From Marsupella aquatica (taxonomy: Eukaryota > Plantae > Marchantiophyta), in contig OZ316892.1 in assembly GCA_973895155.1 (NCBI GenBank), positions 21,081,619 through 21,145,618 on the forward strand: a stretch of 64,000 nt of DNA. Direction: 5' to 3'. The notes under the pieces were generated by a model. It saw only the letters and a list, made by a program, of their open reading frames with translations, was not told the origin of the DNA and did not search any database. The position numbers and the translations under genes are program-made. Below, piece after piece: positions 29,248-59,972 of this stretch (positions are counted from its first letter, which is position 1; each line of letters begins with the position of its first letter).

Positions 29248-29270
29248 CAGTCTATTCATTAAAACTGGAA
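29248..29270 (+). repeat. Left TIR of the outer DNA transposon
   Basis: cagtctattcattaaaactggaa, inverted match to 59950-59972. Confidence 0.85.
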
Positions 29271-30143: not shown

Positions 30144-33100
30144 TTACTCAACAATCCCTTCCATGTAGGTTTTGAGTGTTTTCAAAATATTCTTGGGAAT
30201 GGTCAAACCTCTATCAATTATATTTTCTTCTCTAGAGCGTGACTTGAATCCATACATAGCAGAATTAGCAAATTGCCAACGTTCAGTGGCACTGTCAAAC
30301 CCAGGATCCACCTCCCAAGTCTTAGTGGTCTGAAAGCAACGTGAATATCGCACATGATCCGGTGCATCATGCTTACCATGTTTAGGCCTCCACCATTGCA
30401 CTTGGAACATAGGAGCATACCGTGTACTAGTAGGAGAATTCTCATTGCATTGCAAGTCTCCTGAAGGAACTTCATGGTTTGGGTCCACAACACCCAAAGC
30501 TCTCACCAACCAGAAACGTTCTTTCCCATTCTTCTTTTCCCATTCATCCTCTGGACGGAGAAATACAAAGTGACCTTCTTGAATATCCTGTAGAGGAATC
30601 CAACGTGCAAGTTCTCGCTCGTGTCGAGCGCCAACAAATGTTGCAGCTTGATCCTCCATCTCTTCCAGGTACTCATTCTGAAGCTCCACCATTTGTGGAT
30701 TTTGTGTACTACTACTAGGCTCCCCCAATGGTTCAGAGGTTCCTGTACTATTAACCTTGTAACCAATTCCGTGGTTGGTTTTTGGCGAGAATTCATATGT
30801 CAATGCTAACTGTATTTCTGCCTCCCCTTCAATTGTAAGCTCCCCAGATAATACTTGCACCACCATCTCCCAATATTTCACCAAAGGAAACCGTTCACGA
30901 TATGCTGTAGAGGTCTCATCCTTACAACTCTTCTTCAAAAACTCAATGTAACGATTAAGGAATGGGATGATTTCTTCAACCTTGCCTCGTACATCCCCGG
31001 AGATGGGTTTTGCAAATGGTTGACCTTCTGGTAAAATGAGAGCATTGGTGTTGGAATCAGTTCTCCAAATAGACCTTCCGGTTAAAGGGTACCAAGGTTG
31101 TTTCACATGTGCTTTGTATTGATATATTGGAATATTATCTCTCATAGAGAAAAGAAATGCCACTGGTTTTGAGTGACCCTCTATGTCTTTTACCTTGAAA
31201 GTTTTCAAAAACTCTTTGTAAGTTGCAACCTCTTGGATCAACCGTGGGATAGGATGAATGCTTTCACACTCCCAAACCTCAGCCATCAACCCCAAGAGGG
31301 TAGAAACCTCCTTGTACTTCACTTGGTTGGATACTTTCAAAAACAATGCATCGACATCCTCATGGGTGTGACCAACCATGAGAAACGACATCTGCACTGT
31401 TTCAAAAACCCCTCTACTAACAAGCTCACTGCAAAATGCCATCACGTACTGGTTTTTGTTATCTTTCCCTGAATTATCCATTTGCAAGGTCAGGTGCCTT
31501 GGCAATGGTTTGAAAGAGGTAGACGTAGCCTTGGGATCAACACCAAAGTCGTCTTGGTCATCTTCAGCTCCTTGAAATCTAGCAATTGAGACTTTTTTGG
31601 GTTCTAAGTAACCTGCGAGAAATGCTTCAAAGTCCAAAAGAGATTGAAAAATTGGCCTCGTTGCAGCCCAATATAATCCTTCAAGGAGGTCTCCAGATTT
31701 TTCCCCCTTGTAATCCTCCAGATCTCTAAGGCACTTGGCCAATGATGTCACTGTGAAGTCTGCATCTCCCGGCCAAAGCCCAATGAAACTGAAGTGAGCA
31801 TACACAGAGATTTTTGAGGAGGTATACTCAAAAATGGAATTAGATGGCTACGTGAAGGTGAGTGAAAACACTATGTATAAACTCTGGAGTGAGTCCTTCA
31901 TGAATTTTGACTTTCACAAGGGAAGTGCATTTGCAAAGTGTACACTTTGCACTGAGTTCAAAGATCAGTTGATGCGGGAGAAGAGAAAGAAAGAGCGTTT
32001 AGAGATTGAGGAAAGAAGAGCTCGCCATTTTCGTGAGCAAATGTCTAGGAGATATGTTTACTATGCTCATAGGGTTCTTGGAAAGAAGGATCCTGAGAAC
32101 TATCTTTGCATTATACATGACAAGATGGACCAGGCCAAGACATGGATCCCTAGGTTGGTCCCCACTCCTAAATCATTGTCTGGTAGTGGTCAACCGCTCC
32201 CCATTGCGCTCATTGGGATGTTGACCCATGGAAGGGATCCCGGAGTTTCTTCGTGAAACAAGATGGAAGTCTGTACTCAACCGTGTTAGTCCCGTGAGAC
32301 CCTCCATAGGGAAGATGCGGCATGGGTTCTCCGTTTTGGGTTAGAATGGACTCCAACAAAGCACGAGCATGCAAGGTGCTTCCCCGTGTCTTGTGTGAAC
32401 CCTTGTTTCCATGGAATCCAACCGTACAACCTGCTTCATATTGATTTTTGTAATCATAATACTTGGCAGTGTTGAATCCATGCATTCTAATAAATGCACC
32501 CTTGCAAACAAGTCTACTTCTTACAAAGAAATATCCTTTTGTCTCCACTTCCTTCTCCCTACAGCCAAAAAGAGTGAGAATGTGACTGGTTTTGTTGTCG
32601 CTTGACATCCCATGGTATTCCCTCCTTATCGCCTATAGGTCTTCTCTCGGCATGCTGAGGCAACACTTCAACTTACAACAACCTTCTCTTTGGATGGAGT
32701 CAATTTCCTCCTCTATGATTTTTAGTATCGCCCGAGACTCCAAGTGCTTCTTCCTTTTTTCATCTGGGTTAACCTTCGTTCTCTTGATGAAGTTATACTG
32801 GCGCTTTGAAAAATCAGTGTCACCTTTCATATCTACCTCTAGATGATCTCGACCATCAATAATTGGTTTCAAAGAAACCTCTTCAATGAGATCTAGAAGA
32901 AAAATACCCTTTGATATCAACAGAAGTGAACGAACGGCCCACCTAACAAGACCAGGCACTCCTGGGGAGATATTTGGGAAAAATAGAGGGTCAATCACAC
33001 GTGTGACAGCAACCCCAACGTGATCTGGTCCAAGAACATCATCATCAATTGCACCTGACTCGAAAGGAACTGTGATGATGCCAACCCCCACTTTGGTCCG

Positions 33101-33860
33101 ATTATCCTCAGCATACAATTCCACCTCCTTGGTCATCCAATTAGAACGCAAACTATAATCCTTGAAATTATAATTTGCAAAAACATCCCGTGTGGACAGG
33201 TTGTTTAGCATATCCTAGGAAGAACTCCTCCGAGTAACATCCTTTAAATTCCAGAATACAAAAGTGTCCAATGCTTCCTGAACGGTATTGGCTCCATTGT
33301 GAGGAAAGGGTAACCTCTCCCTTCCTTGAAAAACTTCACATATTTTCACACTAATCCTAGAAGTGTCAAGACTTTCATTGTGACAGGTCTCATCGGGATT
33401 CGTCTTGAACACAAATCCACGAGCCACAATCTGATTGCCGATCCAGAGCTCAACTTCATCGCCAGATATAATTGAGTCTCCAAAACTTCCCACCGAAGAT
33501 TTGTCTGGTACAAAACCGGGAACCGTATCCTTTGTAGAACAAGAGGCATCCATTTGTGTTGTCGCTGGAGTTGACTGACTTCAAATATGCAAAAGAGGCA
33601 TCCCAAATAATGCAGGAGTCGACAGCATCAAATAGGGTCCTGATCGGCGGCAAAGGGTAAGGAATTTCCCATGATCCCTCATAGCACTTCTCAATGAGAA
33701 CTCCTATACGATTACTTCCCAAATCAACATTACGCACTGAGTCACCCGGGTCAACCTTGAGGACGGTCCCGCAAGCAACTTCCACTCCGTTGATTACGAG
33801 GCAAACCTTGTCCCCTCGAAAAAAATCCCCATTTTGAAAACGTGGTCCAAACTGTTGGAT
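30144..33860 (-). pseudogene. Sola-like/DUF7869-type DDE transposase with three N-terminal Tnp1/En-Spm-like domains; disrupted by two TAG stops, a frameshift and an inversion
   Basis: CCKLKCC; VCKGAF..HG; YRLPSCFTKK; FAKCTLC..H; CIIHDKMDQAK; LTLQMDNSGKDNKNQYVMAF; FLMVGHTHEDVDALF. In-frame TAGs at 33215 and 32633. Segment 31806-32246 lies on the + strand. The 5' end is uncertain. Confidence 0.8.
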
Positions 33861-35227
33861 GTAGTTACCTCGAGATGATCTCGAGGTAAAGTGACTACAA
33901 AAACAAACCAAAAAACCCAAGTATAGAAGTTTATCCCACAAAATTGTGTGATAGAGAAAATAAGAAACTCTTCTACCTCGAGACGATCTCGAGGTAGAAG
34001 AGGGACCAAAAACTCCAATATGTAAAAATTCAGAAGTATTTAGCTCGAGACGATCTTGAGGTAAAATATGAAATCTCACTGAATAGCGAATTCAGATTCT
34101 ATACCTCCGACTCTCTACAAACTCAATTATAAGAAGGACAACCGAATGCACCATTAGCTAGAAGGCAAAAGTTAATAATTTTGAGGATCAAACTTATGAC
34201 TCGAGATGATCTCGAGCCAAAAAGGACATTGTATTTGACAAAGATACTATTATGAATAATAAGCCACCCAAAATAAGAACATATAAATGGCTCTAGATGA
34301 TCTAGAGGAATGATTTGGTGCAATTAAGAAAGTAGGCTCCCAGTTTACTTCCAAACACTGAGAAATAGCTTCTAAAAGGCCATCAAATAGAGGGAAAAGG
34401 CTTCCAAATGGATTTTGACTGACACTAGTATAAGCTGAAAAGGTTTGGTTTTCTAAAAGATAGGAGCTCAATTATTTTAGACCTCCTTCAGGGCTTAAAA
34501 TGAGAATTTCTCGAAATATCCTAAACACAAACGTAGAGTCCACAACCCTTGAAAAGAACAACAGAAAGAGATCAGAGCAGAAATCTAGAGTCAAAGAGAG
34601 GGAGAGGGAGAGGGAGAGAGAGCAGAGAGAGGCAGAGGGAGAAACGAGCGAGCAATGAAACAAAATGAGAAGAATGACCCGCTGGAGACCAAAGAGAAGC
34701 AATATATAAAACCCTGACAGACAAAAAGGCCAATAAGACGGCTTGGTTGAACTTGTGTCACGGCTAAACTCGCGGCAGGGCAGAAGTACGGATAACAATA
34801 ATGACAACACGTGTGACCGTAATAATGACTGTACGCACCTAGCAGGTTGCGCGGCAGTCTGCCTGAGCCTGCACAAGCCCTGGCACGCTTGGCACGACCA
34901 AGGCCGACCCCCGAGGGGCTTATAGTGGCATCAGGGGTTTTGAATTCCCCATTTTCACATTCGCCTCCTCGCCTCCTCGCCTCCTCGCCTCCTCGCCTCC
35001 TCGCGTCCCTTGCCTCCTTGCCTCTAGATTGTTTTGCGCTCTTGCCTCGAGATCCTTGTATTAGCCTCGAGATTGCAGAGGGTCAAGATTAGGTTTTTTC
35101 CTCGAGATTTTATAGGGTCAAGATTTTGTGTTTAGGCTCGAGCTTCGATAGGGTCGAGATTTTCTATTTAGGCTCGAGATTTGTTTTTAAGTTCTCAGCC
35201 CATAGTACGTTCCTCTCTTCACCAGCC

Positions 35228-38200
35228 ATGTCGACTGTTGTAGATTTCTCCAAGGAGGACTTCGCTGAGTACAACCTTGCAACCGTTGGCGAAGAGCTTC
35301 AGACCCATCTAGACTCAGCACATCAGATCCATCGCACCATTAAACGTAATTCATCATCTTTGTTCTGTTTAGGTTTAACTCGAGATCGTCTCGAGCTTCA
35401 ATTGGTCGACTTGTTTCTGGATTCCTTGGATGCAGTTGAGGCTCGAGATCATCTCGAGCCTATTGATGTTTTTTGCAATACTTTGCTTCAAAAGTTGTGA
35501 TCTATCAATTGATTTTGCATTTGATGTAAGTGGCATGAGGCTCGAGATCGTCTCGAGCCAATATGCAATTCCTGCATGTGACCTAGTGAGATTTCTTCAA
35601 GTTGGAAACCCTTATCCTTCAAAAGTGAAACATCATATCCAAAATATCTAAAATTTCCTTCCTCCAGGGACTTCTGTACCCTCCAACTCGTTCTGATCAT
35701 TGACATCCGAACGGGTTTGTGGTATCAGAAGTCAATGGAGAAAGTGGATTTTAATCATTGATTGAATATGATGTTCATTGTTGAATATGATATTCGGATC
35801 ACTCGTTTGACATGTTAGGCTCGAGATCGTCTTGAGCCAAATATATCCCTCACCATCTTCCATTATGGTCATTCGTATCCCTTGGCCAATTTCTTCCAGT
35901 TGGAAGGATTCCATGTCGTCTACTTCAATTACTAATATCCTTTTCATGGTGATCCAAGCTTGCCTTTTGGACCACTTTCTTAGTCATCCAACTCGTTTGT
36001 GAAGATGACAAACCACTAAGTTAGAGGGTTTTGAATGTGGTCGAATAGGTGACATTGGATCATTCTTGAAAATGTTGTTCGTTAAATTTGACTGGTTCAT
36101 GATATGCAATGGAATAAAACCTCAACTGATATATATGAGGATCGAGATCATCTCGAGCCCTTGTCTTTTTCTTTTAAACAGATGGTGGCTCGAGATCATC
36201 TCAAGCCTATTGTGTTTCCTAACTATTGTGTTATCTTTTTAGATTTCTTGGGTTTAAAATCTCTTTTTAAATTCCACGGATGAAATGGCATTGGAACATG
36301 TCAGACTATTAAACTTAAAAGGAAGATCGAGATCATCTCGAGCCACCTATTTGTTTCTTGGTTTTGTAGTACATGTTTTTGACAATTGCTACATTTTGGC
36401 TGTACCAGGTGTGAAATTGGGATCGCCTAATTTGGTAGTCGAAGATGAACATGCAATTGAAGTTTCCTGCCCTGGACAGGGTTTATTTGGATTCTGTTGG
36501 GCCATTGAGCTTGCTGAAACTGAAGACATGGAAGGAACTATTATTTGTGTGAAGACGAGGTCTCCATCAGTCGATCCTCTAGTGTGCAGCCTTCTAGGGC
36601 TTATTGTTTCTATTGTGACGAGTAACGGTAAGGACATGGTTTTGACGGTGGAGAACCATGAGACAGGGAAGTGGGCTCTAATTAGACTTCACGCCAAAAA
36701 CTACTCTTGCAATCTTAACATTGAACGTGCAGCCAGGAAACAACTGAGCATGATATCAATGGGGTTCTTCCCCGAGGGTTTTACTACAAGTAATTTACTA
36801 GAAGATACTCCTATATCTGGAGCGGACATAATTTTTGGATTCCTTTATTGTCGAAAATATGGGTTTGATCGTGATGATGCATTCACGACTCCTTTCACGT
36901 GGAAGGTTTTGAGACTAATGTCGGAATCCAAATTGGGGGAGTTTGAATCCATATCCCCTGATTTTGTGTTTGGAGCCGGAGAATTTGACGAGGATGCTTG
37001 TAAAAAGTGGGTGTTGTCTCATCGGAGACAAACAGGTAAATTGAAATCTGTAGCTGCGGGAGACAAGACATCCGGTTTGGACAAAAAGGAAGCAAAGGTG
37101 TCTCAAAAGAGGAAGAGGGTTGAGAAACCCGAAAGCAAAGCGAAGAAGGCTCCACCTCAAAAAAAGTCCGCGCCGCCCAAGGTAGATCTCATTCCGGCAT
37201 CTTCCTCGGGTGTGAATGCACATACCGATGATGATGGCACTCCAGGAGATGCTCCGGGAGAAAAGAGCGTTAAGGAAGGAGCCGAACTTCTTAAGGAGAT
37301 TGAGGAGTATTACACATTTGGCATGAATGAAACTTTTGATATTCCTGTCACTAGTATAGATTTGCCGTCTGCAGTTTTGGTATATAGGATGTTCAATAAG
37401 ACCATGCCATGGAGGTCGCAAAATCCATGGTTAGAAACCCTGGAATGGTACCAGCTGTGGCGGATTTAATTTCGTATTCAAGAGAGAGTTTGTAGTTGCT
37501 CCATTATGAGAATACTGCTAAGGATCGAAAGGAGTTTGAGTGGGGTGTTAAGAATAAGAAGGTGCAGTTCCTTGCAATCAGTGGACAACACTCGGCAAAG
37601 GCAGCTGTTTGGATCATAGGTTGGGCTAAGAGCGATGCAAAGTTGAAGGAGGTCGCGAAGAGTCTGCAATATCGAAAGTCACAAATTCTTTCGGACAGAA
37701 CTCCAAGAACAATACTTGCTCAACACTCACAAAGGGCAAATGCTATTAATAAGACCATGGAGTATGAGTCTTGTTTTCTTGATACTATGGTCCATGCCCA
37801 TTGATAGTTTGACGAGTGTGGCCGTCCGGAGAGACCCGTGATTGGGTCCAATAGACTAACGGATCATCAAAAGTTCCAGGTAAATTCAAACTCAAATCCA
37901 CTTCTAGCTCAAGATTGTCTCGAGCCTCGAGGTCAAGTTTCTGTATTTGATTTATCTTCATGTATTCTCCCATAAATTTTACCATAGTTCTTTAATTCTA
38001 CCTCGAGATCGTCTCGAGCCTCAGATTTTCTTTGTACTGTTTGGATCAGGATTTTATGGCCCTTGCCAAAATAATGACTGGAAAATCCGATCTAAGGAAT
38101 ATTTTTTGGTTGCTATTTTCGGATGAGAACCTCTTCCGAACTTGGAGACAAATGTGCATCAATTGGGTCAAGGGACTTCTTCCAGATGGTCTAGGGGAGT

Positions 38201-39767
38201 TAGGTTAAAAAAAAAACGGGAAATCCCGGACAATAAAAATGATTACGCCGGCATTGTTTAGATGCTTTGAAGGAGATCTAAGTAGTGACGACATTCTGAA
38301 AGTTTTTACTGTCGTTCAACAACAGAAGATTTTATTGAAGAAAGACCCAGCCAACAAATCTGATGTTCAATCAATGAGTGATATGGCTCATACTTTCAAA
38401 GTCATGACCAAGCTGAGGGCAAAAATTGTGGAGTACTTTGTTTTGAAGTATCCGGATCGGTTTGCCAATTCACTCACTTGGTTTGAGCTAACTCAATTTT
38501 TGCCTGCATTTATGGATCGTGGTGAGTTGCCGAAACTTAGACAACTTGCTGGAGAGGTTTGGATTTCCAACCTCCTAAAAAGAAATAGGCCAAAAGACCC
38601 ATTTCCGCAAAGTCTCATTGTTAGGCTTGAGCAGATATATTGCAAGGTATTTGGCGGGTTGCCTTCAATGGAGGATACTCCTTATCGCACATTTTTTAGC
38701 GATAATTTGATGAGGACAATGAAGACTGAGATTGTTGACTCGGTGCAAAGGATGTGCCCACTCTCCATTGTCGATTTTGGTCGTCTTCGACAACGGCAGT
38801 GGACAGATGCCGAATTTTTTGTCTTGCTGGAGTATTGTTTGCAGATGGCAAACTCGACGGAGCTCTTAGTAATCATTTTTGTCCATCAAGGCCCATTGAT
38901 AGGCCAGATTCAGAGTGCCTTTGAAAATATTCATCGTGAGAAGAAAGTCCACACGAAGCTGGAGTACAGGAGCTACTACCGTGATCAGCTGCCCAAGGAG
39001 GAGGGAGATTTTCTCATTGGAGCCCAAGACTCAATCATCTTTGGGGGAATTTGTTGTGAAGAGGAACCAGACTGGTCCCAAATTTTCTTTGATGACTTTT
39101 ATGCGTTCTGGAACTACAGTGAGAAGTGGGACAAAGACTTCACAGTCTTGCCTTTGAAGGCCCCTACTGGGAACAACAAAGACCAATCAAAGGGGAAAGA
39201 GAAGCTCGATGAATCCACTGTTGATGTCAAAGTTTTGGAGAAGATGACCCCATCTTATGAGATGGTCGGTCGGCGTGGTGGCTTTGTAAATCCAAGAGCA
39301 AAGCCTTTGCGAATGACAAAGCGTCTTGTTGATTATTTCTCGTGCCCAGGTCATACAGTATTGGATTTCTTCTCTGGAGGACAGACATTGAAAGCTTGTG
39401 TCATTCTTGGTCGGGATTGTTTTGTGTATTCGGACACAGCTCAAGAGATGGAATTCACAGAAGCCTTTGCTCAGCTCCTTCATGACAACAAGCAGGTTTT
39501 ATATGTGCCACCCAAGGAGCCGTTATCATCTGAGGAAATTACTGCCGGTCCCCTCGTTGTAATAGAAGAGGCGGCCTTAGACATAGCTCCGGTAGAAGCC
39601 AGTGTTTATGAGGAAGTATTTGCGGAGAATTTAGAGCATCGCAAAACGGAGGGCCCGAAAATCACAAGCTACATGGAAGAGAAGGGTGAAATACTGCCTG
39701 AATTTGGAAATGATGCTCGAGATGATCTTGATGTTCCAGGTGTGCCTTCATCGGGTGACCTTGGGGA
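35228..39767 (+). pseudogene. Cargo gene, 5' part: ParB-like domain plus N4/N6 DNA methyltransferase-like domain (multi-exon, decayed)
   Basis: DIPVTSID..RMFNK/DHAMEVAKSM..FLAISGQHSAKAA (ParB-like); NPRAKPLRMTKRLVDYFSCPGHTVLDFFSGGQTLKACVILGRDCF (beta-class MTase motifs X/I). Intron 37880-38049 is in phase. One frameshift at ~37399 and stops at 37493, 37802, 37805 and ~38206. The 5' exons are tentative. Confidence 0.65.
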
Positions 39768-40112
39768 TGTTAGGATTTACTCTTAGGTCTAGAGTTACGA
39801 ATGTACCGTAGTTAAAACTAACCTTAGTCGCAGACTTGGTTAGGTTAGTCATGCTGTGCACACTCTATAACCAAGCGGTGTTTGCTTGGAGAGGTGGAAC
39901 TCAGGCTCATTGTTACGGAGCCAGTTGAGAGATAGGGAGAGCTTGTGCTGTGGATGCTTGGTATGGCCGGTCGGCCTAGAGTGTAGTAAAGCTCTTGTGT
40001 GTTCCCGTGGACGTAGCCTCATGTGGAGGTGAACCACGTATCTCTCTGTGTCGACTATTGTGCGTTGGATGGTTCATGGGCTTGCCATTACGATCGTCGT
40101 CTATGCTCAACA
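39768..40112 (+). repeat. 5' LTR (345 bp)
   Basis: tgttaggatttactc...ctatgctcaaca; about 9 substitutions and 1 indel versus the 3' LTR by manual comparison. Confidence 0.97.
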
Positions 40113-40114
40113 AT

Positions 40115-40126
40115 TGGTATCAGAGC
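40115..40126 (+). other. Primer-binding site (tRNA-iMet)
   Basis: TGGTATCAGAGC 2 nt after the 5' LTR. Confidence 0.95.
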
Positions 40127-41044
40127 ATGTCTGGGAGGTGACGTGTATTTGTGATGGTTTTTTCCAGTGTTGAGTGTCGGTGGATCACCCGGAGTTTTGT
40201 CGCATGGAACTTGGAGTTTATGGGCTCAACGGATAGATCGGGGCAAGAGCTTTCTAACGGTGTGAAGAAATCGTTGAACGGAGCTCGTGGTGCAGACACA
40301 ACTACATTTTGACTCAACTTAACGTTGCCTCACAACAGGCTAATCTCGACGTATGAAACTCTAAACGGAAACACGGAATCCCCAAGGTAAAATTGGCAAC
40401 GTTCTGGACGTCTATATTGACGTGGTTTCTTACGTCGTCTCACACAATGCACATTGCCACACCGCCAACGTGGTTCTTTGTGTGCACGACGTCCTATGCA
40501 TCGTTAGAGTACTGGGCTAATGTAGATTTCCATGTCCATTGAACGTCGCACGAAGTGACGTTAATACAAACAAAATGTCGTGATTGACGACGTTGACTCC
40601 CTCGTATAAGACAACGTCAATGTTTGTAACGATGTCTGGGACACCGTTTCGTTTGATGTAATGTGAATTCGTTCATTGGTTTACGTGGTGTGATAAGACG
40701 TTGTTATCATATATCGATGTCATGAACGACATTGTGTGAAAGTGGAAGACTACGTCTGGGTCATACCTTGTGAGATGCTTGGTAACTTTATGAATGAACG
40801 ACACCCCGTATATTATGTCGGACCCTGCCATACAACCTTATTGGAGGTTATAAACACACTTAAGCTAGGGTTACAATGGGGTGAGTATTATTTGGGTAGG
40901 CAATTGGGGTTTAGGGATACACATTCAATATGCATATGGTATAGACGTTGTAATCCGCGAAAAGTGTGGTATTAGATAATATTGTTATGGGCCAAATATG
41001 TACAAAATGGAGGATGAAGTTGGGCAAGTAAAATAGGCTATACC

Positions 41045-48200: not shown

Positions 48201-49597
48201 ACATTCTAGAGAGGATACGTAGTCTCTTAATACTTTACGTCATCTATAACTAGGTAATGTAAAAATACGACTCCACATACGACGTATTCAAGGTCGTATA
48301 AGTCACCCCTCTTCAGGAACATCCTGCAAAGCGACGTTTGTAGGAATCTTAGTAGAGGGAATGTTAGTAGGCATTGAATTGGTAACCATCTTAGCCCACT
48401 TTCAGATTGGGCGGTGATATTTATTCCTGTCATGTTTTTGAGTGCCTCATAGGTGGGTATGTGCCAAGGAGATCAAGGAGTCAGAGATTCCTTTGATGAG
48501 GGAGAGGACGGCGCAAGTGATGTGCAATTTGGAGCGAGTGTTCCCCCCAGCACAGTTTGACATGCAAATGCATTTGCTATGTCACCTGGTGGATGAAGTT
48601 GCCATTGCAGGCCCAGTCCATGCCCGATGGATGTATTGGGTTGAGCGATATATGAAGGTGCTCAAGGGTTGGGTGCGTCAACCCGCTCGACCTGAGGGAA
48701 GTATGGCAACAGGGTTCATTATGTCAGAGTGTCTTTTCTATTCCGGGGGGGTGATAGGGAGTTTGGATAGCAAAGCTCCCACAACTTGGGAAGAGGCACA
48801 AGATGATGACAATGGTGGGCTGCGATTGATGGGTGCGGCCAAGAAGCGATCATTGGATGATGACATCTTTCGTCGACAGATCCATAATTATGTGTTGGGG
48901 AATCGACCGGAGATGTCTGATTGGAGGGAGATGTATAGGTATGGTACTCTAAAATTTTAATCGATTGTGAATTGGATTTGAGAAGGCTGCAAATCTCTAA
49001 CAATCTTGTGACAACGTATTTGGCAGTGCATGGTTGGAGCTTCAAGTGGGAGTTGCGCAAGCAGGTCGTGGCATTGCATCATTTCGTGTCTGGGCTTTGG
49101 AGCGCATGGAGAGGCTCTTGGCTGTGCATGGGTCTACATCCATTCCCATTGATGTACAAAACATCATTAGAGGGCCAGGGATGCGGGCCACAACTCATAC
49201 ACACATGTATGAGTCAGGGCATCACTTTCGGACTTGGAGGACAGACCATATGAAGAAGAGTACTTGTAACTCTGGAATCTTCATGATGACTGATGTAGAT
49301 GATGTAGAGGTTCCTTATTGTGGGACAGTTGTGGACATTTTAGATGTTCATTTTGGGTCATTTGTCACCACTGTACTAGAGGTGAGGTGGCACAAGTCGA
49401 TCATGTCACCCCCAGCGAGAGCTACGATGGTTGCGGATGAGTGTGGTTTTTATCGTGTGGACACAACCCGAGTTGCACCCACAGGGACTGAGTTTAGTGA
49501 CACCATAGTTTTTCCTAGCCAGGTGGATCAGTGCATTATGGTTCCGATGCAGACCATGAGAGGATGGTCCATTGTCATACTAATTTTCCCTCGGTGA
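43728..49597 (+). CDS. TnpD-type CACTA transposase; exons 43728-44246, 45353-45726, 45879-46185, 46582-47086, 47190-47503, 47601-47751, 47855-48134, 48453-48938, 49027-49597
   Basis: CPCSRCK..HL..HG; IHMCPHGCILY..CP..C; LRYFPI..DSPAWKHID..EPRNVRLGLSIDGVNP..SIWPV; TDGPG; DSMHIEVNV; GLKSHDYH; FPPAQFDMQMHLLCHL..GPVHARWMYWVERYM..RPEGSMA; YCGTVVDI..DECGF. All junctions are GT-AG and in phase, and no stops were seen. Confidence 0.88.
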
Positions 49598-50278
49598 AGG
49601 AAGGGCTTCATGGCATCAGTCCTTGCAGACGATGCGGACTGACACTATCCTTCACACCCTCCATTTATATGTATTGGCTATGCCCACCTTCCACATATAT
49701 ATTGACATATGTTTCGACGTTTGAGATCTGGCAAACTGGAGGGAGAGTTGTGCAAAGTTTCTTCTTTCCTCACTTTATAGCTAAGAACACATTAAAAAGC
49801 ATTAAACCTCGGCCTTCGAACAACCTTCAATGGGTCCTAGCACGTAAACCCTTATCACGTAGGCCAATTGACACTTCGAACTTATTAACGTCAACCTCAA
49901 CGTCATTAGACAATCAAAGGTCCCTTATACCCATAATGAAGACGTTAATCTATAGTTACGTCGTAGATACGTTGTACAAACGATGTATACATAGTACGTC
50001 CTTGGTTTACCTTGTAGTAGACGACGTAGATTGTGTTACCGTGTCTTAAACGACGTAAATGTTTATTTAACCATTCTTCTGATGACGTTCAAAGTTTCAA
50101 TCGACGTTACTCACAAAACACATTACAAATATAAATTGCCTGGGAGGGACTTTTTATTCATGCGCTCAGAAACATACAACGTGCACATAAGGCATGAGTC
50201 TGACTCCAGTCTAAACTGATTCCAATCCTAGGCAAATGATGCTCCTCCGTCTCCAGCTGACCTTGGCACTAGTGTAGC

Positions 50279-50839
50279 TTAAGGGGTCCCTTCACCAGAC
50301 CAGTAGTACTCCTCATCTGCCTTCCTCTTTTTGTACGAATCACGCCTATTGCTGGCGTTCCATTTCTTGCGGACCACTGCTTCACCAACCTTCAGCCTTT
50401 CAGCCTCAATCTCAGCTGCACAGCTTTCCTTGTAGTCATACATCACAATATCAAGTTCAGTCGGTGACAACTGACATTTAGCCAACTTTGGTGGACAAGC
50501 CTCACCATCATCATCCTTGGGCGTATTGTCCAGCATCAAATCGTCCCCTGGATGCAGCAAAAACTCTTCTGGGTCCAACTCCTTATTGCCCAGAATGGAG
50601 TACTGTACCCAACAAATCGAGATGAAATGCACGGACTCTGCAAAGTGCTCGATCAATCCAAGATAGTCACTGAAGTGCTCTGTGACTTGTTTCCAGGTAT
50701 TGGCAAGCAAGTATTCCGTCTTTGAGTTACAAAACTTGTCTATCACACCTCCACGACAAAAAAAGCCACGAACAGTCTTGTCTTCTTCACCTAGCGGAAG
50801 AAAACAACAGTGGACATCCTTGAATATCTTACGTACCAT
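50279..50839 (-). CDS. Small BRCT-domain-like protein carried by the CACTA element
   Basis: IFKDVHCCF..RGGVI..KTEYLL..HFISICWVQYSILGNKELDPEEFLL fits the BRCT consensus (F, GG, THLI-like, W..S); basic C-terminal tail. Confidence 0.6.
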   Translation of the reverse strand: MVRKIFKDVHCCFLPLGEEDKTVRGFFCRGGVIDKFCNSKTEYLLANTWKQVTEHFSDYLGLIEHFAESVHFISICWVQYSILGNKELDPEEFLLHPGDDLMLDNTPKDDDGEACPPKLAKCQLSPTELDIVMYDYKESCAAEIEAERLKVGEAVVRKKWNASNRRDSYKKRKADEEYYWSGEGTP

Positions 50840-52547
50840 AGCTAAAGACTTTCAATCTCACTCTGCAAATTCTGTGCACTATCATACCCGTAGGACATCT
50901 GAAATCACGAATGACCTGTGCAGTGAGGTCCCAGTAGCCTTGCCCCAAAAACTCCCGCAAAAAACCTTACGCATGCCAATTGGATTCCATTAACGTCGTT
51001 TCCCACATTGGTCATATACGTCTAACCTCGCCCAACATCCATTATACGTTGTCATAGCATAGTATCCGTTATAGCCACGTCTGAAACGACGTACATCTAT
51101 ACGTCGACCCAACCCTATTTTGCTACACCGTTCGGGACGACGTCTACATGTTTGCCTCGTTATAAAAGACGTAAATAGCCCTATTGGGAGATACGTTAAA
51201 TTAAAGACCCTCTAGACGACGTAAAATGGGAAGGAAAGTCAAATGGGTAAACCCATTTTGGGTTACGACGTAGAGGGAGATGTACTGGGGAGTAACGTCG
51301 TGTCACATGACGCGAAAGGAAGTCACGACGTAGTGAAATGTAGTTGTGAGAGAGATCTAAGTTTTTGTCATTTTGGATTTTGTGAAGAAAGTTGGCAACA
51401 TTCGTGTTCGACGGTTTTTTGGAGAAGGGACCAGAGTTTGTTTTCTTGACGGTTTGAGCTCTACGGCAAAGGAGGCATCGCATGCTGTAGCTCTGCTTAT
51501 AGATCGGGATGAGCTGTTTGTTTTGGTAGCTGATTTGTTACCAAGTGTGTACCGTGTGCGACGGGACGAGCAAAAGAAGCATTCTGATTTTCTGACCGGC
51601 TATGGAGTCCTCTTTTGCCTGATCGGGGTTTCTTGTCGTGGAAATCGACTCGGAGGGAGAAGCGTCAAGTATTTTGACTCAACGGAGAGATTGAGGCAAG
51701 ACGATTGTTTTGAGTCCGGGATTGGCTCTTTGATGCCAAGAGGAAGGCTAAGCAAAATCAATTACCTTGTTGGACTTGGTGACGGCACCAAGTGCAATTC
51801 ATCAACATTCGTTGTTGACAAGGTACCATTTTTTCTCTTTGAAAAACTGATTCAAAATTGGCTATGGCAATTGAGAGAAATCTGTCATCTTTACCAATTT
51901 TTTTCTCTCTTGTTCTTTCCTCGTTTTGGGTGCTTCTTATACCGATCTTCACCGCCTCGAAGTCTAGTTTCCAAATCTGAAATCAGATCTTGATTTCGTC
52001 AAAACCCGAGTGAGATATCTTGCGTTTGGTGTCGAGGGGTACATTCTGCCGTGTGTATTTTCTGCGCGCGTGACCAGATTTCGACAACGAAGGGTGGTAG
52101 GGGGTTTTGGGGGTTCGAGGACACGTGTCAGCCCCTCGATTGTTCTTCCAAAATTCCCATAGGGCCTGTACAAGGGTCATAGAATATTCCAAAAAACCAG
52201 AGAGCTATTTTTTGACCGTCCAACAAAGATTTCATCCGCCGAACGGTAATTTTTTTGGTTCTTTTTTGGCGAGGTCGTAGCCATTGAAGTTGGCAACGCG
52301 ATGCACCGATCACATCACAATTCCGATGACGGGTTGTACTTCATATTTTGGTTATTCCTTGAGGTGGTCAAAACGGGGGAGTTTCCCAAGGTTTTACCCA
52401 CCTCGATCAAAATTTGAATAACTTTTCCGTCAAATTTTGATTTTGATTTTCAGTATTGGACTCCTAGCTTTGTGGGCTACGCGGCGGTGTTGAATTTTGA
52501 GTTTTTAGAGAAGTTGTGAAAAACGACATTTTTTGTGATTTTCTCAT

Positions 52548-55500
52548 ATGAGTGATTCGGAGGAGTTTTTTGAAGACGTGGAACTTGAAGCACGAGGATC
52601 ACCACGGCGGTTTGAGGGACAGAGAGAGGAGCAAGAGGAAGAGCACGAGACACCGATACCATCACCGGTGCGGCGTGTGGTGGAGGAAGCAGTACTACTA
52701 CCGGAGCTCACGGTAGTGCCAAAGAAGAAGATGGGGACTTTCAAGCTTGGGGGACCCAAGTATGAAGTGACAAAGTATGATGGGCGCTCTGACTACTTGC
52801 TATGGGAGAAGCAGGTGAAGGGAGTGCTCTATACGTCAGGGATGGGCCAACTGCTAAGCCCTCATGAAGACGATGTTGATGAGAAACAATGGGACCGCAT
52901 GTAGGAGCAAGGAGTGTGGTGTGTTACACTCTATCTCATGCCTCCCATCATCAAGCAGTTGGGTGCACATAAGGCGGGACATAAGGATTGCATGTCCTTG
53001 TTTGCGGAATTGCAGAGCAAGTATCACCGCAAGGAGTTGTCAAACCGGCTATACACTTCCTACAAACTGATGAGTTTCAGGATGAAGGAATCCGGTACGA
53101 AGTTGCAAGACCATGTGGATGCTTTCAACGACATGGTCGTTGACTTGGAAAACCTTGGGGAGACTTTGAATGATGAGACGAAGGCTCTGCAGCTTCTTAG
53201 TTCATTGCCTCCATCTTACCAGTCCCTATCACGAGTGTTGTTGCATCGTGATAGGGATATCATTTCATACAATGACGTGGTAAGTTCTCTGCTTAGTGAT
53301 GATCTTCAGCAGAAGATGCACATCACGTCACAGCCTTCATCATTTGGTGTTGCCCTCAATGTTAACCGTGGGAGGAGTATGCAGCGACCAACTGGGGACT
53401 GTAGAACCTAGTTTAGATCTAAATCCAGATCTAAGTCCAGGGGTAAATCCCCTCAGAGGAGGCAGGTGACATGTTGGAAGTGCAACCAAGTTGGACACTT
53501 CAAGCGAGACTGTAAGGGAAAGGCAGCGGAAACTTCATCGGCAAATGTGGCTAGGGCTGATGGAGAAGCTGATTTGCTCAATGATGAGTATGTTTTATGA
53601 AGTCGGGGGTATGCCCTGTGCACGTCATCCAGGAGAGCAGATGATGTATGGATTCTTGATTGTGCTTACTCTTTTTATATTTGTTACATTCGTGAGTTTT
53701 TCAGTTCTTACTCTATTTCAAACGGTTCAGTTCTGATGGGAAATGATCACTCCTATCAAATTGAGGGTATTGGGTCTGTGAAGATTCAAATATTTGATGG
53801 CGTTGTGCGCACAGTGTCCGGAGTCAGGTATGTACCTGGCATGCATAAGAATCTGATTTCACTCGGTGTGTTGGATTCAAATGGTCATCAATGAAGCGTT
53901 ATTGATGGTGAACTTCAAGTCAGATCGGGAGAGACAATGATTTTGAAGGGGAGCAGACAAAAAAAATTGTATGTGTTACAGAGAAATATTGTATGTGGAG
54001 AGGCCAATGTAACCAAGTCTCACGAGGAGATGACTCAACTGTGGCATTCACGGCTAGGCCACATGAGTGAGAAGGGTTTGGCTATCTTACGGAAGAATGG
54101 ACTCATTTCTAATTTGCAATCTTGTAAATTAGAGTTATGTGAGCATTGCATTCTTGGAAAGCAGCTTTTGGTGTTGGAACTCATCGTTCCAAAGCGGTTC
54201 TTGAGTACATACATAGTGACGTGTGGGGTCCATCCTCGACTCCCTCACACTCTGGAAAGTTGTACTATGTATCATTTATTGACGATTACTCAAGATTTGT
54301 GTGGATTTATTTCATGACGCTGATGTCTTGTCCATTTTTAAGAAGTGGAAGGCCCAGGTGGAGAATCAGACTGGAAACATGGTCAAGTGTTTGGATACAA
54401 GGGTGAAGAGTCCGAGGTCAGACAATGACGGGGAGTACACTTCAATGGAATTTGAAGAGTACTGTTTAGAACAGGGGATAACTCACCATCTCACCACAGT
54501 TTATACTCTGCAGCATAATGGTGTCGTTGAGAGGCTCAATCGGACACTGTTGGAGCGGTCACGGAGTATGTTGAGCCAATCAGGTTTACCACAAGAATTT
54601 TGGGCAGAAGCTGTCAATACCGTAGCTTATTTGGTAAATCTTTCTCCTTCTAGTGCTATCAATTTCAAAACGCCGTTTGAGATGCACTATAAGCGGCAAG
54701 CAGACTATCATGGCTTGGTAGTTTTTGGAAGTGATGCATATGCTCTCACACTGAAGCATAATAGGACCAAGTTGGATCCTACCTCCAAGAAATGTGTTTT
54801 TCTTGGGTACCAGAGTGGTGTGAAAGCCTATAGGCTATGGGATCCTATTGCCTGTAAGCTCGTTGTCAGTAGAGATGTTTCCTTCAATGAATCTAGATTA
54901 TTGAAGGAGGGGGAGAATACTCAGGTCTCCCATACTGACAAAGAAAAATCTCCTATCCCGGATCTCGTTGAGGGGGAGATTGGTTATGAGGTGCATGACT
55001 GGAGAGAAGAAGTTGCTCCAATTATGGAGCTGGTTCTTGTGCCAGAGGAACCAGAGGAGTTTGTTGATGCTGGTGAGCAGCAAGTGGATGCTGGTGAGCT
55101 TCAAATTGTACCAGCACACGCAGATCAACCAGAGTCATCGGCTATAAGAGCATCTGGTCGCACTGTACGCACTCCATGAAGGTATGGACAGTGGGTTGAT
55201 TCATCTCAGTTGCAAGAGGAGGATCGATTTTGTTACTGACGATGAGGGTGATGCGTTGATTTTGGAAGAAGGTGAACCTTCTTCATTTCATGAAGCAAGT
55301 GCTTCAAAGGAGAAGCAGGAGTGGACTGCAGCAATGCAAACGGAGATGCAGTCACTGAAGGACAACAAAACTTGGGAGCTTGTCAAGCTGCCTAAGGGAC
55401 AGCAAGTGGTGGACAGCAAGTGGGTATACAAGCTGAAGGATCAGTCCATAGGAGGTGGATCGAAGGTCTACAAGGCTAGGTTGGTAGCCAAGGGATTCAC

Positions 55501-56860
55501 ACAGGAAAAAGGTGTGGATTACAATGAGGTCTTCTCACCAGTTGCTAAGTACTCAACAATACGGCTATTGTGTGTGCTTGTTGTTATGTTTGGTCTGCTA
55601 CTAGATCAGATGGATGTTGTCACAGCTTTCCTCTATGGCACCTTGGAAGAGGTGATCTTCATGAGACAGCCGCTAGGTTTTGTGAAGAAAGGGCAAGAGG
55701 ATTTGGTTTGCAGATTGCTGAGATCCTTGTACGGGTTGAAGCAGTCACCAAGACAGTGGAATAAGCGGTTTGATGATTGGATTCATGCACAAGGCTTTCA
55801 CAGGAGTGTGTTTGACCCATGTGTGTATCTTAAACCGGTGAAGAATGCTGTCTTAGGGTTCATTGTTTTAGTACTTTATGTGGATGACATGCTAATTGCA
55901 GCCAAGGATAGGTCTGAGATTGTTAAGCTCAAGGCACTGCTTAGTGCAGAGTTTAAGATGAAGGACTTAGGGCCAGCTAAGAGGATTTTGGGTATGGAGA
56001 TCACTAGGGACTTGGAGGCTGGCAAGCTATGGTTGACGCAGAGCAGTTATGCGAGGAAGGTAATTGCAAGATTCAACATGGGGAATAGCAATCCAGTAAG
56101 TACCCCGTTGGCTCCACACTTCAAGTTATCATCAGCGTTCTGTCCTACGGATGACACAGAGAAGGGGTTGATGTCAAAGGTTCCGTATGACAAGGCAGTG
56201 GGGAATCTCATGTATTTGATGACTTGCACTAGACCTGATCTTGCCATGGCTATGGGCAAGGTGAGCAAGTACATGTCGAATCCAGGGAAGGTACACTGGG
56301 AAGCAGTGAAGTGGATTATTCGGTATTTGAAGGGTACCGTGGATCATGGTCTATTGTTTGATGCACATGCTGATAATGCTAGATCATTGATGGGCTATGT
56401 AGATGCTGACTATGCACAGGATCTAGATCGGAGGAGGTCAACAACAGGTTATGTGTTCACACTTGGAGGTGGATGCATAAGTTGGAGGTCTACTTTGCAG
56501 AAGTGTATTGCTCAGTCTACTACAGAAGCGGAGTATGTTGCAGCAGCGGAAGCAGCAAAGAAAGCGACTTGGTTGGATAGACTTATCAATGAGATGGGAT
56601 TACCATAGGGGAATGTGAAGCTCCATTGTGATAGTCAGAGTGCACTCCACCTTGCTGTGAACCAGGTGATGGACAGCAGAGTGAAGCACATCGACGTTAG
56701 GTACCATTTTATCAGGCAGGCTGTGTCTAATAATATGTTTGAGCTAGTCAAGATTGACGGTAAACTCAACCCGGCTGACGCTTTTACCAAAGTGATTCCT
56801 TTAGAGAGTTTTTCTAGACACCGTGATGCGTTGCAGGTTTTGCAATTGCCTCACAAGTAG
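52548..56860 (+). pseudogene. Copia gag-pol, disrupted
   Basis: KYDGRSDYLLW; LLSSLPPSY; zinc knuckle CWKCNQVGHFKRDC; WILD protease; LWHSRLGH..CEHC; IHSDVWG, FIDDYSR, RSDNDGEY; YKARLVAKGF, QMDVVTAFL, LYVDDML; YVDADYA, SSTEAEY-like QSTTEAEY, CDSQSA, KHIDVRYHFIR. Several stops and frameshifts. Confidence 0.95.
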
Positions 56861-57040
56861 GGTTACTTAACATTTGTGTAGATACTGAGATATGCTCTTG
56901 CTCATTCCTTGTATAGGCTACGACTTAGTTTTGGTCTACTCTCGTATAAAGAGGGAAAAATTGGTTTGGTTTTTCTTTCCAGAACTTCCCGCTGAGTAGT
57001 CATATTGATAGCAGCCTTTACCCTCACCTAGACCAGAGTC

Positions 57041-57050
57041 AAGGGGGAGA
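57041..57050 (+). other. Polypurine tract
   Basis: AAGGGGGAGA immediately before the 3' LTR. Confidence 0.9.
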
Positions 57051-57051
57051 T

Positions 57052-57397
57052 TGTTAGGATTTACTCTTAGGTCTAGAGTTACGAATGTACCGTAGTTAAG
57101 ACTAACCTTAGTCGCAGACTTGGTTAGGTTAGTCATGCTGTGCACACTCGATAACCAAGCGGTGTTTGCTTGGAGAGGTGGAACTCAGGCTCATTGTTAC
57201 GGAGCCAGTTGAGAGATAGGGAGAGCTTGTGCTGTGGATGCTTGGTATGGCCGGTTGGCCTAGAGTGCAGTAAAGGTCTTCGTGTGTTCCCGTGGACGTA
57301 GCCTCATGTGGAGGTGAACCACGTATCTCTCTGTGTCGACTATTGTGCGTTGGATGGTTCATGGGCTTGCCGTTGCGATCGTTATCTATGCTCAACA
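57052..57397 (+). repeat. 3' LTR (346 bp)
   Basis: Direct repeat of 39768-40112 followed by TSD GGGGA. Confidence 0.97.
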
Positions 57398-57402
57398 GGG
57401 GA

Positions 57403-59272
57403 TGCACAACGTGAACAACAATCTTCAACCTTGGATGTTGGCTGGGAATCCACCTTGCAGGATGCAATTAGCCAACCAATTCCAAGCCATTCTCAACTGG
57501 ATGAGATTTTCTCTACTAAGAAAGCTAGTGGCTGCCATACTCCCCCCCAGGACGAGGCAGGTGCATCGTCCTCTCCCTTGGACCAAATGTTTTGCGCTTC
57601 AGAGAATAAGCTTGTTTTCACAGATTCTTTTACTGGAAGCCCCATAATTCTCCCTTTTGTTAGGAAATTGGGGACTGAAATTGGTAGAACTGGTTACAAA
57701 TCACTCAAAGCAAGTGCTACTCATTATGTTTGGACTAATGGACCGTCAAAAGGTCAACAAGTCAGTATAGAGCAGTCTGAGAATATTATTCGATCTAGAA
57801 AGTATAGGAAGGATAAGTTCAAATTAGTGCCAGTTTGGTCTGAGCCAGCTCTTGTTGAGACCCTTCCCGGAGGGATAAATTTGGACATCCAAAACCAACT
57901 AGGAGATAACCTTCTAGATGAATTTGGGTCTTTCAGCACGTGAGGTTGAAACCCAAGTTAGTTTGAACAGTCCTAAAATTCAACCGTCTAAATTATTATG
58001 TCTACCTTCACAGAAATAGGCGGGCCCTTACCAATTGTGGAGTGTGTCGACAATAATCTCTAAAGATGTCCTGAGATTTCTTCAACTACTGACCTTCAAC
58101 CAACAATAGGTATGACGTTGACTGTTGTTCATTACCTTGTGATGCTCGAGATCGTCTCGAGCATTCCTTTATTTTATCTCCCACAATTCTAACATTGGTG
58201 TTCCTTCTTTGCAGGACCCTTGCCTCCACTTCACGGTCCGATCAGACAGAAGCTATTGATTCTTGACCTCAACAAAATGTGTTGGGATTCTGTCAAAACG
58301 CCAAGTTCCGGACCGCGCCGTAGTGCAACAAGTGTCAAGGGTGTCCACTGGGGGAGACGTGGAGGGTTTAACTTTATGTATGTTGAGCGACCCCATCTTC
58401 ACGAGTTCTTAATTGCAGCTTTTTCGTTATTTGATGTTGCCATTTGGACTTGTGCAAGGAAACCCAGGACGGATGAAATGATTCATTTGATCTTCAGTCA
58501 AGAAGAGCGAGAGCAATTCAAGTTTATTCTCACACAAGAAGATACATTCGATATTGGAATCCAGAGGCCTGACATTACCGATGGGAAGGCAAATATTCAT
58601 TTGAAGGATTTGAGGGTGGTTTGGAAACGTTATGGTGGATTATACGACGAAACTAATACACTCCTTCTTGATGACACTCCAATGAAGGCATTTGCAAATC
58701 CAGAGAATTGTGGGTTGTTTCCTTCCTCATTTTTGCATCACTCCACGGATGATACATTCTTTCCAGAAATACTATGGCCTTTGCTCAGGAAATTGTATCA
58801 TGCCTTCAATCTTCAGCACTACCTTTTTATCAATCATCCAAAGTGGTCTATGATAAATGTTTTAGCGGACAGAGATCAACAGGCTGCCATTTATGCGTTG
58901 TTGATGGAGCAATGGGGTAGTATGGTATGGGTTCATTTGGTTATCCATACAGTCTTGGATGTCACAGCGGACGAAATTCCTTGGGATGTCAAGAATGAAG
59001 TGCAACAATTACCACCAATGGAGGAATTGACGGAGGAGGCGATCAACGACCTTGCAAAGACGTTAATTGGATATCAGTACACAAGACCCTACAGAGACAA
59101 TCATTGGGGATTTGTTTCGGAAGTCTTGAGGTGTAGGGACCTCACCACGAAGTTCTGGAATACGAAGCCTCTCGATTTCTGCAATCGCGATATGAAATAT
59201 GACCTGTCAGGGTCTAGATTTACTTGCTCAAATGAATTCTGCGGGGTGGAGGAGCATGAGATTTGGGTCTAG
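57403..59272 (+). pseudogene. Cargo gene, 3' part: linker exons plus FCP1/NIF-like HAD phosphatase domain (58215-59272)
   Basis: The frame continues SSGDLGD|AQREQQ after Copia removal. KLLILDLNK, ERPHLHEFL..FDVAIWT, HLKDLRVVW, NTLLLDDTPMKAFANPEN. Confidence 0.75.
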
Positions 59273-59949
59273 ATTATCTCGACCCTACACTGAACAGTTA
59301 CAATGTGAGTTGTAGATATACATATTCTTACTCAAAAAAAAGTGAAGCTATGCGTACTATCCATTTGAGTCTAGATGTTGTTGATCCTCTTTTACTTATA
59401 GATATGTTCTCAGAAAAAGGTTATTTGGGTCTTGACCCTATACAAAGGGAATAGCTAGAGATATAGATTCAACAACGGGTCAAAATTATGTGGACCCTAC
59501 ATTTGGGTCGAGATAATCTCGACATAGATTTTTACATAGTAATTGATATACATTCAACAACCGGTCAAAGCCATCTAGAGCCTGCATTGGGGCAGACGTG
59601 GTCTCGACCCTGTAAAAATAGGTTTTTTACTTTTATAATACATCACCGGTTTACCTTCCGTGTTTGTGTAACTTGGTTATCACAGGTCATTTGAATTTAT
59701 TATATTGTCTTATTCTATTTTTTCATTGTTTATATTGTATATAATAAGAACACTTTATTGTCTTTTAATTAATAAGTATTAATAATTGATAACTGAATTA
59801 TTTAATTAATAATTTGGGCATTAGAATTGTAATTTTAGACCTCAAAAAGTGTATATTTGGCCACTAAAATATATGCTTTTGGGGAACAAGTTATAGAACT
59901 TTTGGGGGTAAAATAAGAAATTTGAAGGTCAACTTCTGGACTAGAGAAA

Positions 59950-59972
59950 TTCCAGTTTTAATGAATAGGGTG
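59950..59972 (-). repeat. Right TIR of the outer DNA transposon
   Basis: ttccagttttaatgaatagggtg, inverted match to 29248-29270. Confidence 0.85.

Follow-up and report, generated by a model that had tools for sequence, protein, structure and literature searches.

The 64,000-nucleotide stretch of the Marsupella aquatica genome analysed here (contig OZ316892.1, positions 21,081,619 to 21,145,618; called the window) raises the question of why a plant transposon should carry the same 17-bp palindrome over and over, mostly outside its coding sequence. The carrier is a decayed, multi-copy DNA transposon of 13.1 kb (13,090 bp when a nested Copia retrotransposon is left out) with a DUF7869 transposase and two divergent genes, one for the transposase and one for a multidomain protein that is referred to as the cargo. 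The most probable answer, with a probability of about 55%, is that the palindrome is a double-stranded DNA site of the element's own ParB-fold protein, the cargo, and that it serves to mark and regulate the element's own family, more likely in an anti-silencing role. Transposon self-recognition and escape from silencing are known in detail in few cases. Here, one sharply defined site and one candidate reader are located on a single element, which has many relatives in liverworts, a plant group that includes a tractable model.

Form, distribution and conservation of the palindrome

The motif can be written as CTCGAGATCRTCTCGAG, or as the degenerate pattern CTCGAGAYSRTCTCGAG. All 19 copies listed in a sequence-only reading of the window have been confirmed at their positions, and eight of them are perfect (CTCGAGA-N3-TCTCGAG). 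The spacer of 5 nucleotides between the CTCGAG arms is fixed, as had been claimed: among CTCGAG pairs separated by 0–15 nucleotides only this spacer recurs, with eight pairs, and spacers of 1 and 14 nucleotides are represented by one pair each. The window contains 19 sites with up to two mismatches, compared with 0.10 expected from 100 dinucleotide shuffles, of which the highest count was 1. Eighteen of these sites belong to the 13,090-bp outer element, one to nested DNA, and none to the 33.3 kb of flanks. The reported absence of the motif from the host flanks is thus correct, but its absence from the nested elements is not complete, since a weak, asymmetric site with two mismatches is present at 47894 in the nested CACTA-type element. 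The listed copy at 59267 has three mismatches; further degenerate GGGTC words surround it and the copy at 59507.

Only two of the 19 copies, at 32837 and 39716, are wholly coding, which agrees with the earlier description of the copies as mostly intronic or intergenic. Coding sequence makes up 8,596 of the 13,090 bp of the outer element (66%) in the gene model of this analysis, and the avoidance of coding DNA is significant (binomial p = 1e-6). None of the eight perfect copies is in coding DNA. The introns of the 5′-untranslated region (5′-UTR) of the transposase gene and the first introns of the cargo gene are predictions from splice consensus. Twelve of the listed copies, together with an array of half-sites, fall within 33869–36342, around a predicted divergent promoter. 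The promoter interval itself contains neither palindromes nor half-sites, and the 3.5 kb next to the left end of the element are free of palindromes. The half-sites, which had also been noticed before, are eight same-strand STC(G/A)AG(A/C)T words with alternating spacings of 20 and 16–19 bp.

The most fitting description of the site is a pair of 8-bp half-sites, CTCGAGAY, that flank a single central base. Read along the sense strand of the gene concerned, 15 of the 19 copies have C at the centre, two have T, one has A, and one, the coding copy at 39716, has G. The centre is therefore polar, and the orientation of the motif reverses across the divergent promoter, a polarity absent from the sequence-only reading. 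That reading had proposed that symmetry often extends beyond the 17-mer. The 35-bp palindrome at 33968–34002 that it cited is real, but the symmetry of the flanks at the nearest offsets does not exceed that of shuffled sequences (p = 0.05–0.11; p = 0.03 over five offsets). The paired changes that keep the symmetry of the copies at 34291 and 59507 are real.

The flanks of the copies are unrelated to each other (36 of 80 positions identical in the best pair, 24 on average), so the 17-mer has been kept while its surroundings have turned over. At 34057 the window has T, and sister copies of the element have C in four of four runs; therefore, the degenerate arm at this site is private decay of the window copy. 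Among 39 other variable places, one falls in the 70 arm positions compared with 5.7 expected (p = 0.016), in a count that uses 40 of 52 rows and may be biased by contig ends. Other sisters, among them one from a second organism, carry extra palindromes at other spacings, in one case as a tandem unit. Contig depth, which when summed is a rough guide and not a copy number, is 37 for a flank contig in run X2, which may share its source with the window, and 500 to about 12,000 for the element contigs; therefore, the family is multi-copy. In the same run, the summed depth is 9,400–15,400 at the first two palindromes and about 530 between them. The approximately twentyfold rise brings the palindromes near to the 11,000–12,000 of the commonest transposase contigs, and suggests a larger, diverged subfamily that shares only the motif.

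In several relatives, gene callers have read into the intron orthologous to the cargo intron that contains two palindromes in the window. Two long read-throughs (P0215 and P0248, about 54% identical to the window) include three strict peptide shadows of the motif, SRPSR and RDGLE together with the neighbouring residues that the motif demands, and the chance of one such shadow in 40 random codons is 0.0003. Four shorter read-throughs of 3–25 residues include none, and a peptide scan restricted to the window's own centres gave nothing relevant. The centres implied by the shadows, YGG and CCN, fit Y-S-R and are present in both orientations; therefore, the sense-strand polarity may be lineage-specific. 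Conservation thus applies to the sequence of the motif, which is kept in sisters and, as the peptide shadows imply, in one orthologous intron, but not to the spacing between copies, which differs among sisters.

The cargo protein as a candidate reader

The cargo gene is encoded on the forward strand, from approximately 35229 to 59272, and is split by introns and by the nested Copia element. The structure of its ParB-fold part has been modelled from the Calypogeia relative P0210 (pLDDT, the predicted local distance difference test score, of 89), which is 57% identical to the window exon over 102 residues. The first eight rows of a Foldseek search with this model are Noc or ParB proteins. In a VIA comparison of narrow scope, from which folds missed by Foldseek may be absent, the top 29 of 50 rows have the ParB/sulfiredoxin fold with Z scores of 5.6–9.8, and the next score is 3.4. 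Structure 7bm8 aligns with a Z score of 9.0 over 97 residues at 2.6 Å, in agreement with a ParB/sulfiredoxin N-terminal fold. When the helical domain is included, KorB (8qa9) aligns over 202 residues at 4.7 Å and Noc over 157 residues at 5.3 Å; the helical domain has no helix-turn-helix profile match. A homodimer prediction for P0210, in which the alignment was not used, scored 0.00 and is evidence neither way.

The domain that follows has a beta-class methyltransferase fold. It matches PF01555 (E = 1.6e-6), a profile (E = 8.5e-12), and RsrI and CcrM (E = 1e-7), and the S-adenosylmethionine motif DFFSGG is kept in the window and in 23 of 38 cases. By contrast, the catalytic motif (D/N/S)PP(Y/F/W) is found in none of 36 relatives at the aligned position, where DPPY, NPPY or SPPY would be expected, and nowhere in the family proteins scanned; the window has DFGR. 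Judged from its sequence, the fold is apparently non-catalytic, and therefore the cargo would read or recruit rather than methylate. The sequence-only reading had offered two possibilities for the palindrome, a parS-like site of a dimeric protein or a methyltransferase target. The former has gained a candidate reader with a modelled ParB fold, and the latter has become unlikely.

A profile-free search has identified 85 relatives of the methylase exon, of which the named ones are liverwort proteins, and a search for longer relatives of this exon found none. The gene ends with a domain similar to NIF/FCP1 phosphatases of the haloacid dehalogenase (HAD) type. In the Riccia protein P0178, the NIF domain and the methyltransferase fold are within one predicted protein. 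No in-frame splice path to the NIF exon has been found in the window copy; a candidate 96-nucleotide exon at 58014–58109 was rejected, as it is one base out of phase and contains a stop codon. Two of seven Calypogeia cargo fragments (CAM6091064.1 and CAM6091065.1) are two to three accession numbers away from the transposase CAM6091067.1, on a contig of equal length, and one of five Riccia fragments is 10 locus numbers from a transposase; the rest have no near neighbour in the partial lists. The element has two genes, and no ParA ATPase was present among the Pfam matches of 47 open reading frames (ORFs) scanned. Segments 36409–37030 and 57554–57939 encode conserved cargo domains that belong to no known family, and the N-terminal one has no usable Atlas match.

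The pairing of a ParB-like protein with a palindrome has already been proposed for PAG3 of red-algal Plavaka transposons (EnSpm/CACTA), whose accessory protein is suggested to bind inverted repeats (Petroll et al., bioRxiv 10.1101/2025.02.11.637652); the new features here are the plant host and the fused, apparently non-catalytic protein. As far as that description goes, Plavaka elements with PAG2 and PAG3 resemble the liverwort element: both are large DNA transposons that encode a ParB-like accessory protein and a methylase domain (PF01555), and in both the proposed binding sites are inverted repeats. In PAG3, which is compared here by description, ParB is fused to a 2-oxoglutarate oxygenase, whereas the liverwort cargo combines ParB and a catalytically blank methylase fold in one protein. 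The Plavaka methylase is a separate gene with SET, whereas here a NIF domain lies downstream of the methylase fold. Tandem repeat arrays are located beside PAG3, whereas the sites described here are dispersed through the introns of both genes, in a liverwort rather than a red alga and with a DUF7869 transposase. With this transposase instead of a Plavaka transposase, one cargo gene instead of three accessory genes, and no oxygenase match, the element is by these features not a member of the PAG1-3 cassette family.

Petroll et al. cite VANDAL as the one case in which a transposon is known to bind its own sequence and to modify it. VANC21 of Arabidopsis binds VANDAL21, the element that encodes it, in introns and non-coding regions (PMC5735166); in both systems the element encodes an accessory protein, and short motifs are concentrated in its introns and other non-coding parts. 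The VANC motifs are described as non-palindromic tandem words of 8–9 bp that change fast between families, whereas the 17-bp palindrome of the liverwort element appears stable among relatives, and its copies have unrelated flanks. The VANDAL/VANC system is characterised by a Mutator-type transposase and by an accessory protein that brings about sequence-specific loss of methylation. No VANC-like Pfam match was seen in the cargo, and the element has DUF7869 instead of a Pfam match to Mutator-like elements.

KorB-OB of plasmid RK2, ParB-parS, and Noc-NBS, as presented in PMC11790492, also combine a ParB fold with a helical domain; their palindromic site has a comparable length and is likewise carried by the mobile element itself, and KorB regulates the genes of its element. 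The cargo differs from them in being eukaryotic and spliced, in lacking a ParA partner, in the serine that replaces the box II arginine, and in its large extra domains. Fusions of ParB with an N6/N4 methyltransferase are described as typical of phages (PMC12704722, PMC4738411) and have the same domain order, and such a fusion is a plausible origin of the cargo. By contrast with the phage proteins, the cargo contains a helical domain between the two parts, has lost the catalytic motif, and is carried by a plant cut-and-paste transposon. In viral contigs, the exact motif occurs as a single site in each of the 80 loci covered out of 120, and one of 149 loci has two sites at one mismatch. Searches for loci related to the element yielded no plant DNA, and none matched in viral contigs or phage records. 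Metagenome contigs gave 28 short matches, all to the methylase end, and prokaryote genomes one weak locus; no close prokaryotic donor was found in these collections. By language-model features, the clusters nearest to the ParB part are those of DUF3723 (0.90–0.91, near the noise limit), which provides a lead only. DUF3723 is a conserved cargo of fungal Starships, which are also large mobile elements but move by a tyrosine recombinase according to their description (bioRxiv 10.1101/2021.12.13.472469), unlike the DUF7869 element; no DUF3723 Pfam match was found in the cargo. The cargo would work like a self-recognition module of the PAG3, KorB or VANC type; by the features tested, it belongs neither to ParABS nor to the PAG cassette nor to the active methyltransferases.

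Proposed function and competing explanations

If the palindrome is the site of the cargo, two cargo subunits would read the half-sites CTCGAGAY around the central C/G, and the dimer would mark those introns of its own family that lie near the promoter. The phosphatase-like domain and the methyltransferase fold, which is inactive, may dock onto chromatin or RNA polymerase II or act there as effectors, and the outcome would be that transcription of the element is maintained. A sliding clamp gated by cytidine triphosphate (CTP) is doubtful, because the arginine of box II is replaced by serine. The cargo would instead be stationary at its sites, and therefore many sites would be needed. Ten of the 28 listed C>T/G>A differences from the sisters are at CG, where 12% of the cytosines lie. 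This enrichment is as expected for methylated DNA and indicates that the host probably methylates the element. Protection from silencing is favoured because of this probable methylation, because the sites have the same kind of location as those of VANC21 in its own element, and because the cargo persists in high-copy families.

Several observations weigh against this explanation. The Foldseek E values are 1.6e-3 or weaker, the VIA Z scores are below 10, the model is partly helical, and it represents the relative P0210 and not the broken gene of the window. Box II reads GQHS in ten of ten proteins, so that serine replaces an arginine that is required for nucleotide binding in the ParB-fold proteins reported as tested; some phage ParBs are described as functional without nucleotide-binding residues. 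The spike in depth is seen in one of four runs and at two of five copies, in summed depths that do not give copy numbers. The peptide shadows are indirect, and among 100,176 residues five strict ones were found compared with 1.7 (maximum 9) in shuffled sequences, which is not significant. Four intronic palindromes in this dead copy show CpG-type decay of their arms, so any shielding of the sites after the insertion was incomplete. A symmetric dimer would leave the polar centre (15 C, 1 G) unexplained. The direction of the effect, protection or repression, is argued by analogy with other systems, and the repeated TNP1-like domains of the transposase could be the binder of the palindrome.

It is also conceivable, though unlikely, that the cargo binds the palindrome as a structural aid, which bridges and compacts the 13-kb element so that its ends can pair for transposition, or as a repressor similar to KorB; such repression is the main alternative to protection from silencing. 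The evidence from fold and motif is the same as for the favoured explanation, and KorB, the closest functional model, represses from distant 16-bp sites. However, the sites cluster around the promoter and in introns and not at the ends, the arginine that KorB requires for long-range action is absent, and the phosphatase-like domain would point to transcription.

In Spm, TnpA binds and regulates its own promoter. The TNP1/EnSpm-like domains of the DUF7869 transposase might likewise bind the palindrome and control the transposase promoter, but this has a low probability. The transposase has three such repeated domains, its full-length relative P0225 (Calypogeia, 1230 residues), which aligns along the entire transposase with 67% identity in the core, matches PF03017 (E = 5.5e-5), and five palindromes are positioned just upstream of the transposase start. 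By contrast, the left end has a different repeat and no palindrome, the cargo gene holds more copies of the motif than the transposase gene, and the element encodes a ParB-fold protein, from a family known to bind such palindromes.

There is little probability that the motif acts at the RNA level, as a hairpin in the pre-mRNAs of the two genes, with a role in splicing or feedback control. A hairpin would explain the intron bias and the sense-strand polarity (C in 15 of 19), it is compatible with the paired changes at 34291 and 59507, and three of five motif regions fold at z scores of –2.8 to –8.2. However, any palindrome folds, and covariation of the flanks was rejected as proof of an RNA stem, since their pairing is at best borderline compared with shuffles. 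The half-site array, which is same-stranded, folds no better than shuffles (z = –0.8), pairing between adjacent copies is as easy as pairing within one, the peptide shadows imply both orientations of the centre in one P0215 intron, and no Rfam match was found. That the motif is a site of a host transcription factor, or a neutral mini-repeat from local duplication, is very improbable. One sister contig contains a tandem duplication of the motif unit, but the 33.3 kb of flanks are free of copies, the unrelated flanks and fixed spacer disagree with a mini-repeat, and the motif persists in distant relatives and in introns with exons between them, despite two to three mutable CpG per copy. The self-marking of the element by a cargo methyltransferase that modifies the sites to N6-methyladenine or N4-methylcytosine can be nearly dismissed, despite the beta-class fold and active bacterial-type N4-methylcytosine enzymes in a liverwort, because the catalytic motif is absent from the cargo relatives, whereas the Marchantia enzyme has TSPPY.

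A more far-reaching form of the favoured explanation, binding of the palindrome by the cargo, is tentative and rather doubtful: a large liverwort transposon family would have made a phage-type ParB-methyltransferase fusion into a CTP-independent, sequence-specific epigenetic controller, with the 17-bp palindrome as its stable intronic operator, oriented by transcription. The dead methyltransferase fold and the phosphatase-like domain would serve to protect the element's own genes from host silencing. Plants would then possess an anti-silencing system separate from VANC, and modules of ParB plus palindrome, spread across eukaryotic transposons, would have a branch in land plants. With this element, the idea of such modules on eukaryotic transposons can be put to a direct test in plants. 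Should the protein shield the DNA that it marks, transgenes could be guarded from silencing by one protein and a 17-bp tag. No description of DUF7869 or of this transposon family was found in the literature covered, which mostly excludes subscription journals.

Architecture and decay of the transposon and its surroundings

Table 1. Positions of the features of the outer transposon in the window.
Feature	Position	Strand	Basis or remark
Left terminal inverted repeat, starts CAGT	29248..29270	+	21/23 match to right end
Left subterminal 22-bp tandem repeat, TGTACATTTGGG core	29284..29401	+	Motif distinct from palindrome
Transposase gene	30144..33838	-	Three repeated N-terminal TNP1/EnSpm-like domains, then DUF7869 (PF25273, E = 7.9e-39)
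Inverted transposase segment, 441 bp	31806..32246	+	Opposite-strand joints relative to sister copies
Degenerate palindrome in transposase coding DNA	32837..32853	-	Motif match
Five palindromes (33869, 33977, 34044, 34200, 34291)	33869..34307	-	Predicted 5′-UTR intron region, upstream of transposase start
Predicted divergent promoter, pyrimidine/purine-rich tracts on both sides	34484..35030	.	Putative promoter role
Half-site array (8 words, 36-bp tandem unit)	35046..35180	+	Upstream of predicted cargo start codon at 35229
Seven palindromes (35379, 35442, 35541, 35820, 36141, 36189, 36326)	35379..36342	+	Predicted first cargo introns
Cargo exon	36409..37879	+	N-terminal domain of no known family, Lys-rich linker, ParB-fold N-terminal domain (box II GQHS)
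Phase-0 cargo intron with two palindromes (37908, 38002)	37880..38049	+	Sequence, read-throughs of relatives
Cargo exon	38050..39767	+	Helical domain (predicted DNA-binding), then beta-class N6/N4 methyltransferase fold
Nested Copia long terminal repeat (LTR) retrotransposon	39768..57397	+	LTRs 97–98% identical, 5-bp duplication GGGGA
Rest of cargo exon after Copia	57403..57939	+	Conserved small C-terminal domain of no known family
Perfect palindrome, non-coding, between cargo exon and NIF exon	58145..58161	+	Motif match
NIF/FCP1-like HAD domain, DLN replacing DxD	58215..59272	+	PF03031 E = 8.6e-17; UBLCP1 E = 6.6e-11
Two variant palindromes with G/C outer pair (59267, 59507)	59267..59523	+	Downstream of cargo gene
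Right terminal inverted repeat	59950..59972	-	21/23 match to left end

CACTA/EnSpm elements in the strict sense have CACTA/CACTG termini, a 3-bp target duplication, and Transposase_21. The outer element has CAGT/CACC termini, DUF7869, and a candidate 2-bp target duplication, AT at 29246–29247 and 59973–59974, which is weak evidence alone; it shares only the TNP1-like domain with that group. The left subterminal repeats are likely sites of end-binding by the transposase. The nearest named relatives of the transposase are from Calypogeia fissa (65–67% identity in the core) and Riccia sorocarpa.

Both genes of the window copy are broken. The transposase gene has stop codons at 33217 and 32635, a frame change near its start, and an inversion, which is missing from sister copies in four of four runs and across which the relatives align on the opposite strand. 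The first of the tabulated cargo exons has a frameshift near 37400 and stop codons at 37802 and 37805, and the second has a frame change near 38208 and contains the degenerate coding palindrome at 39716. The Copia element splits the latter exon, which continues in the same phase on both sides, and itself contains a CACTA-type element.

Past the DUF7869 core, 30147–30700 encodes a conserved aromatic-rich C-terminal domain of the transposase without a Pfam match, which by eye resembles a chromatin-reader barrel. The DUF7869 core has a weak match (32% identity, E = 1e-8) to a Nitrospirales metagenome-assembled genome contig, L149:10001-10280. The CACTA-type element inside Copia (43272–50274) includes Transposase_21, DUF4218, and an ORF at 44438–45211 with a SET domain (PF00856, E = 5e-5). 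Its candidate ends are CACTAG..CTAGTG, at which no target duplication was found.

Adjacent to the left terminal repeat, on its outer side, 28500–29240 is a high-depth repeat with many loose ends at 28746–28825 and an opposite-strand joint at 28870–29163, and is probably another small element. A 104-bp direct repeat (81% identity) flanks the outer element at 27569–27672 and 63099–63202. ORFs in the left flank (1734–4761, 5044–6237, 13965–14753 and 19820–20476) correspond to a broken reverse-transcriptase element, a Kelch-repeat gene, an SGL beta-propeller, and a cyclophilin-like protein.

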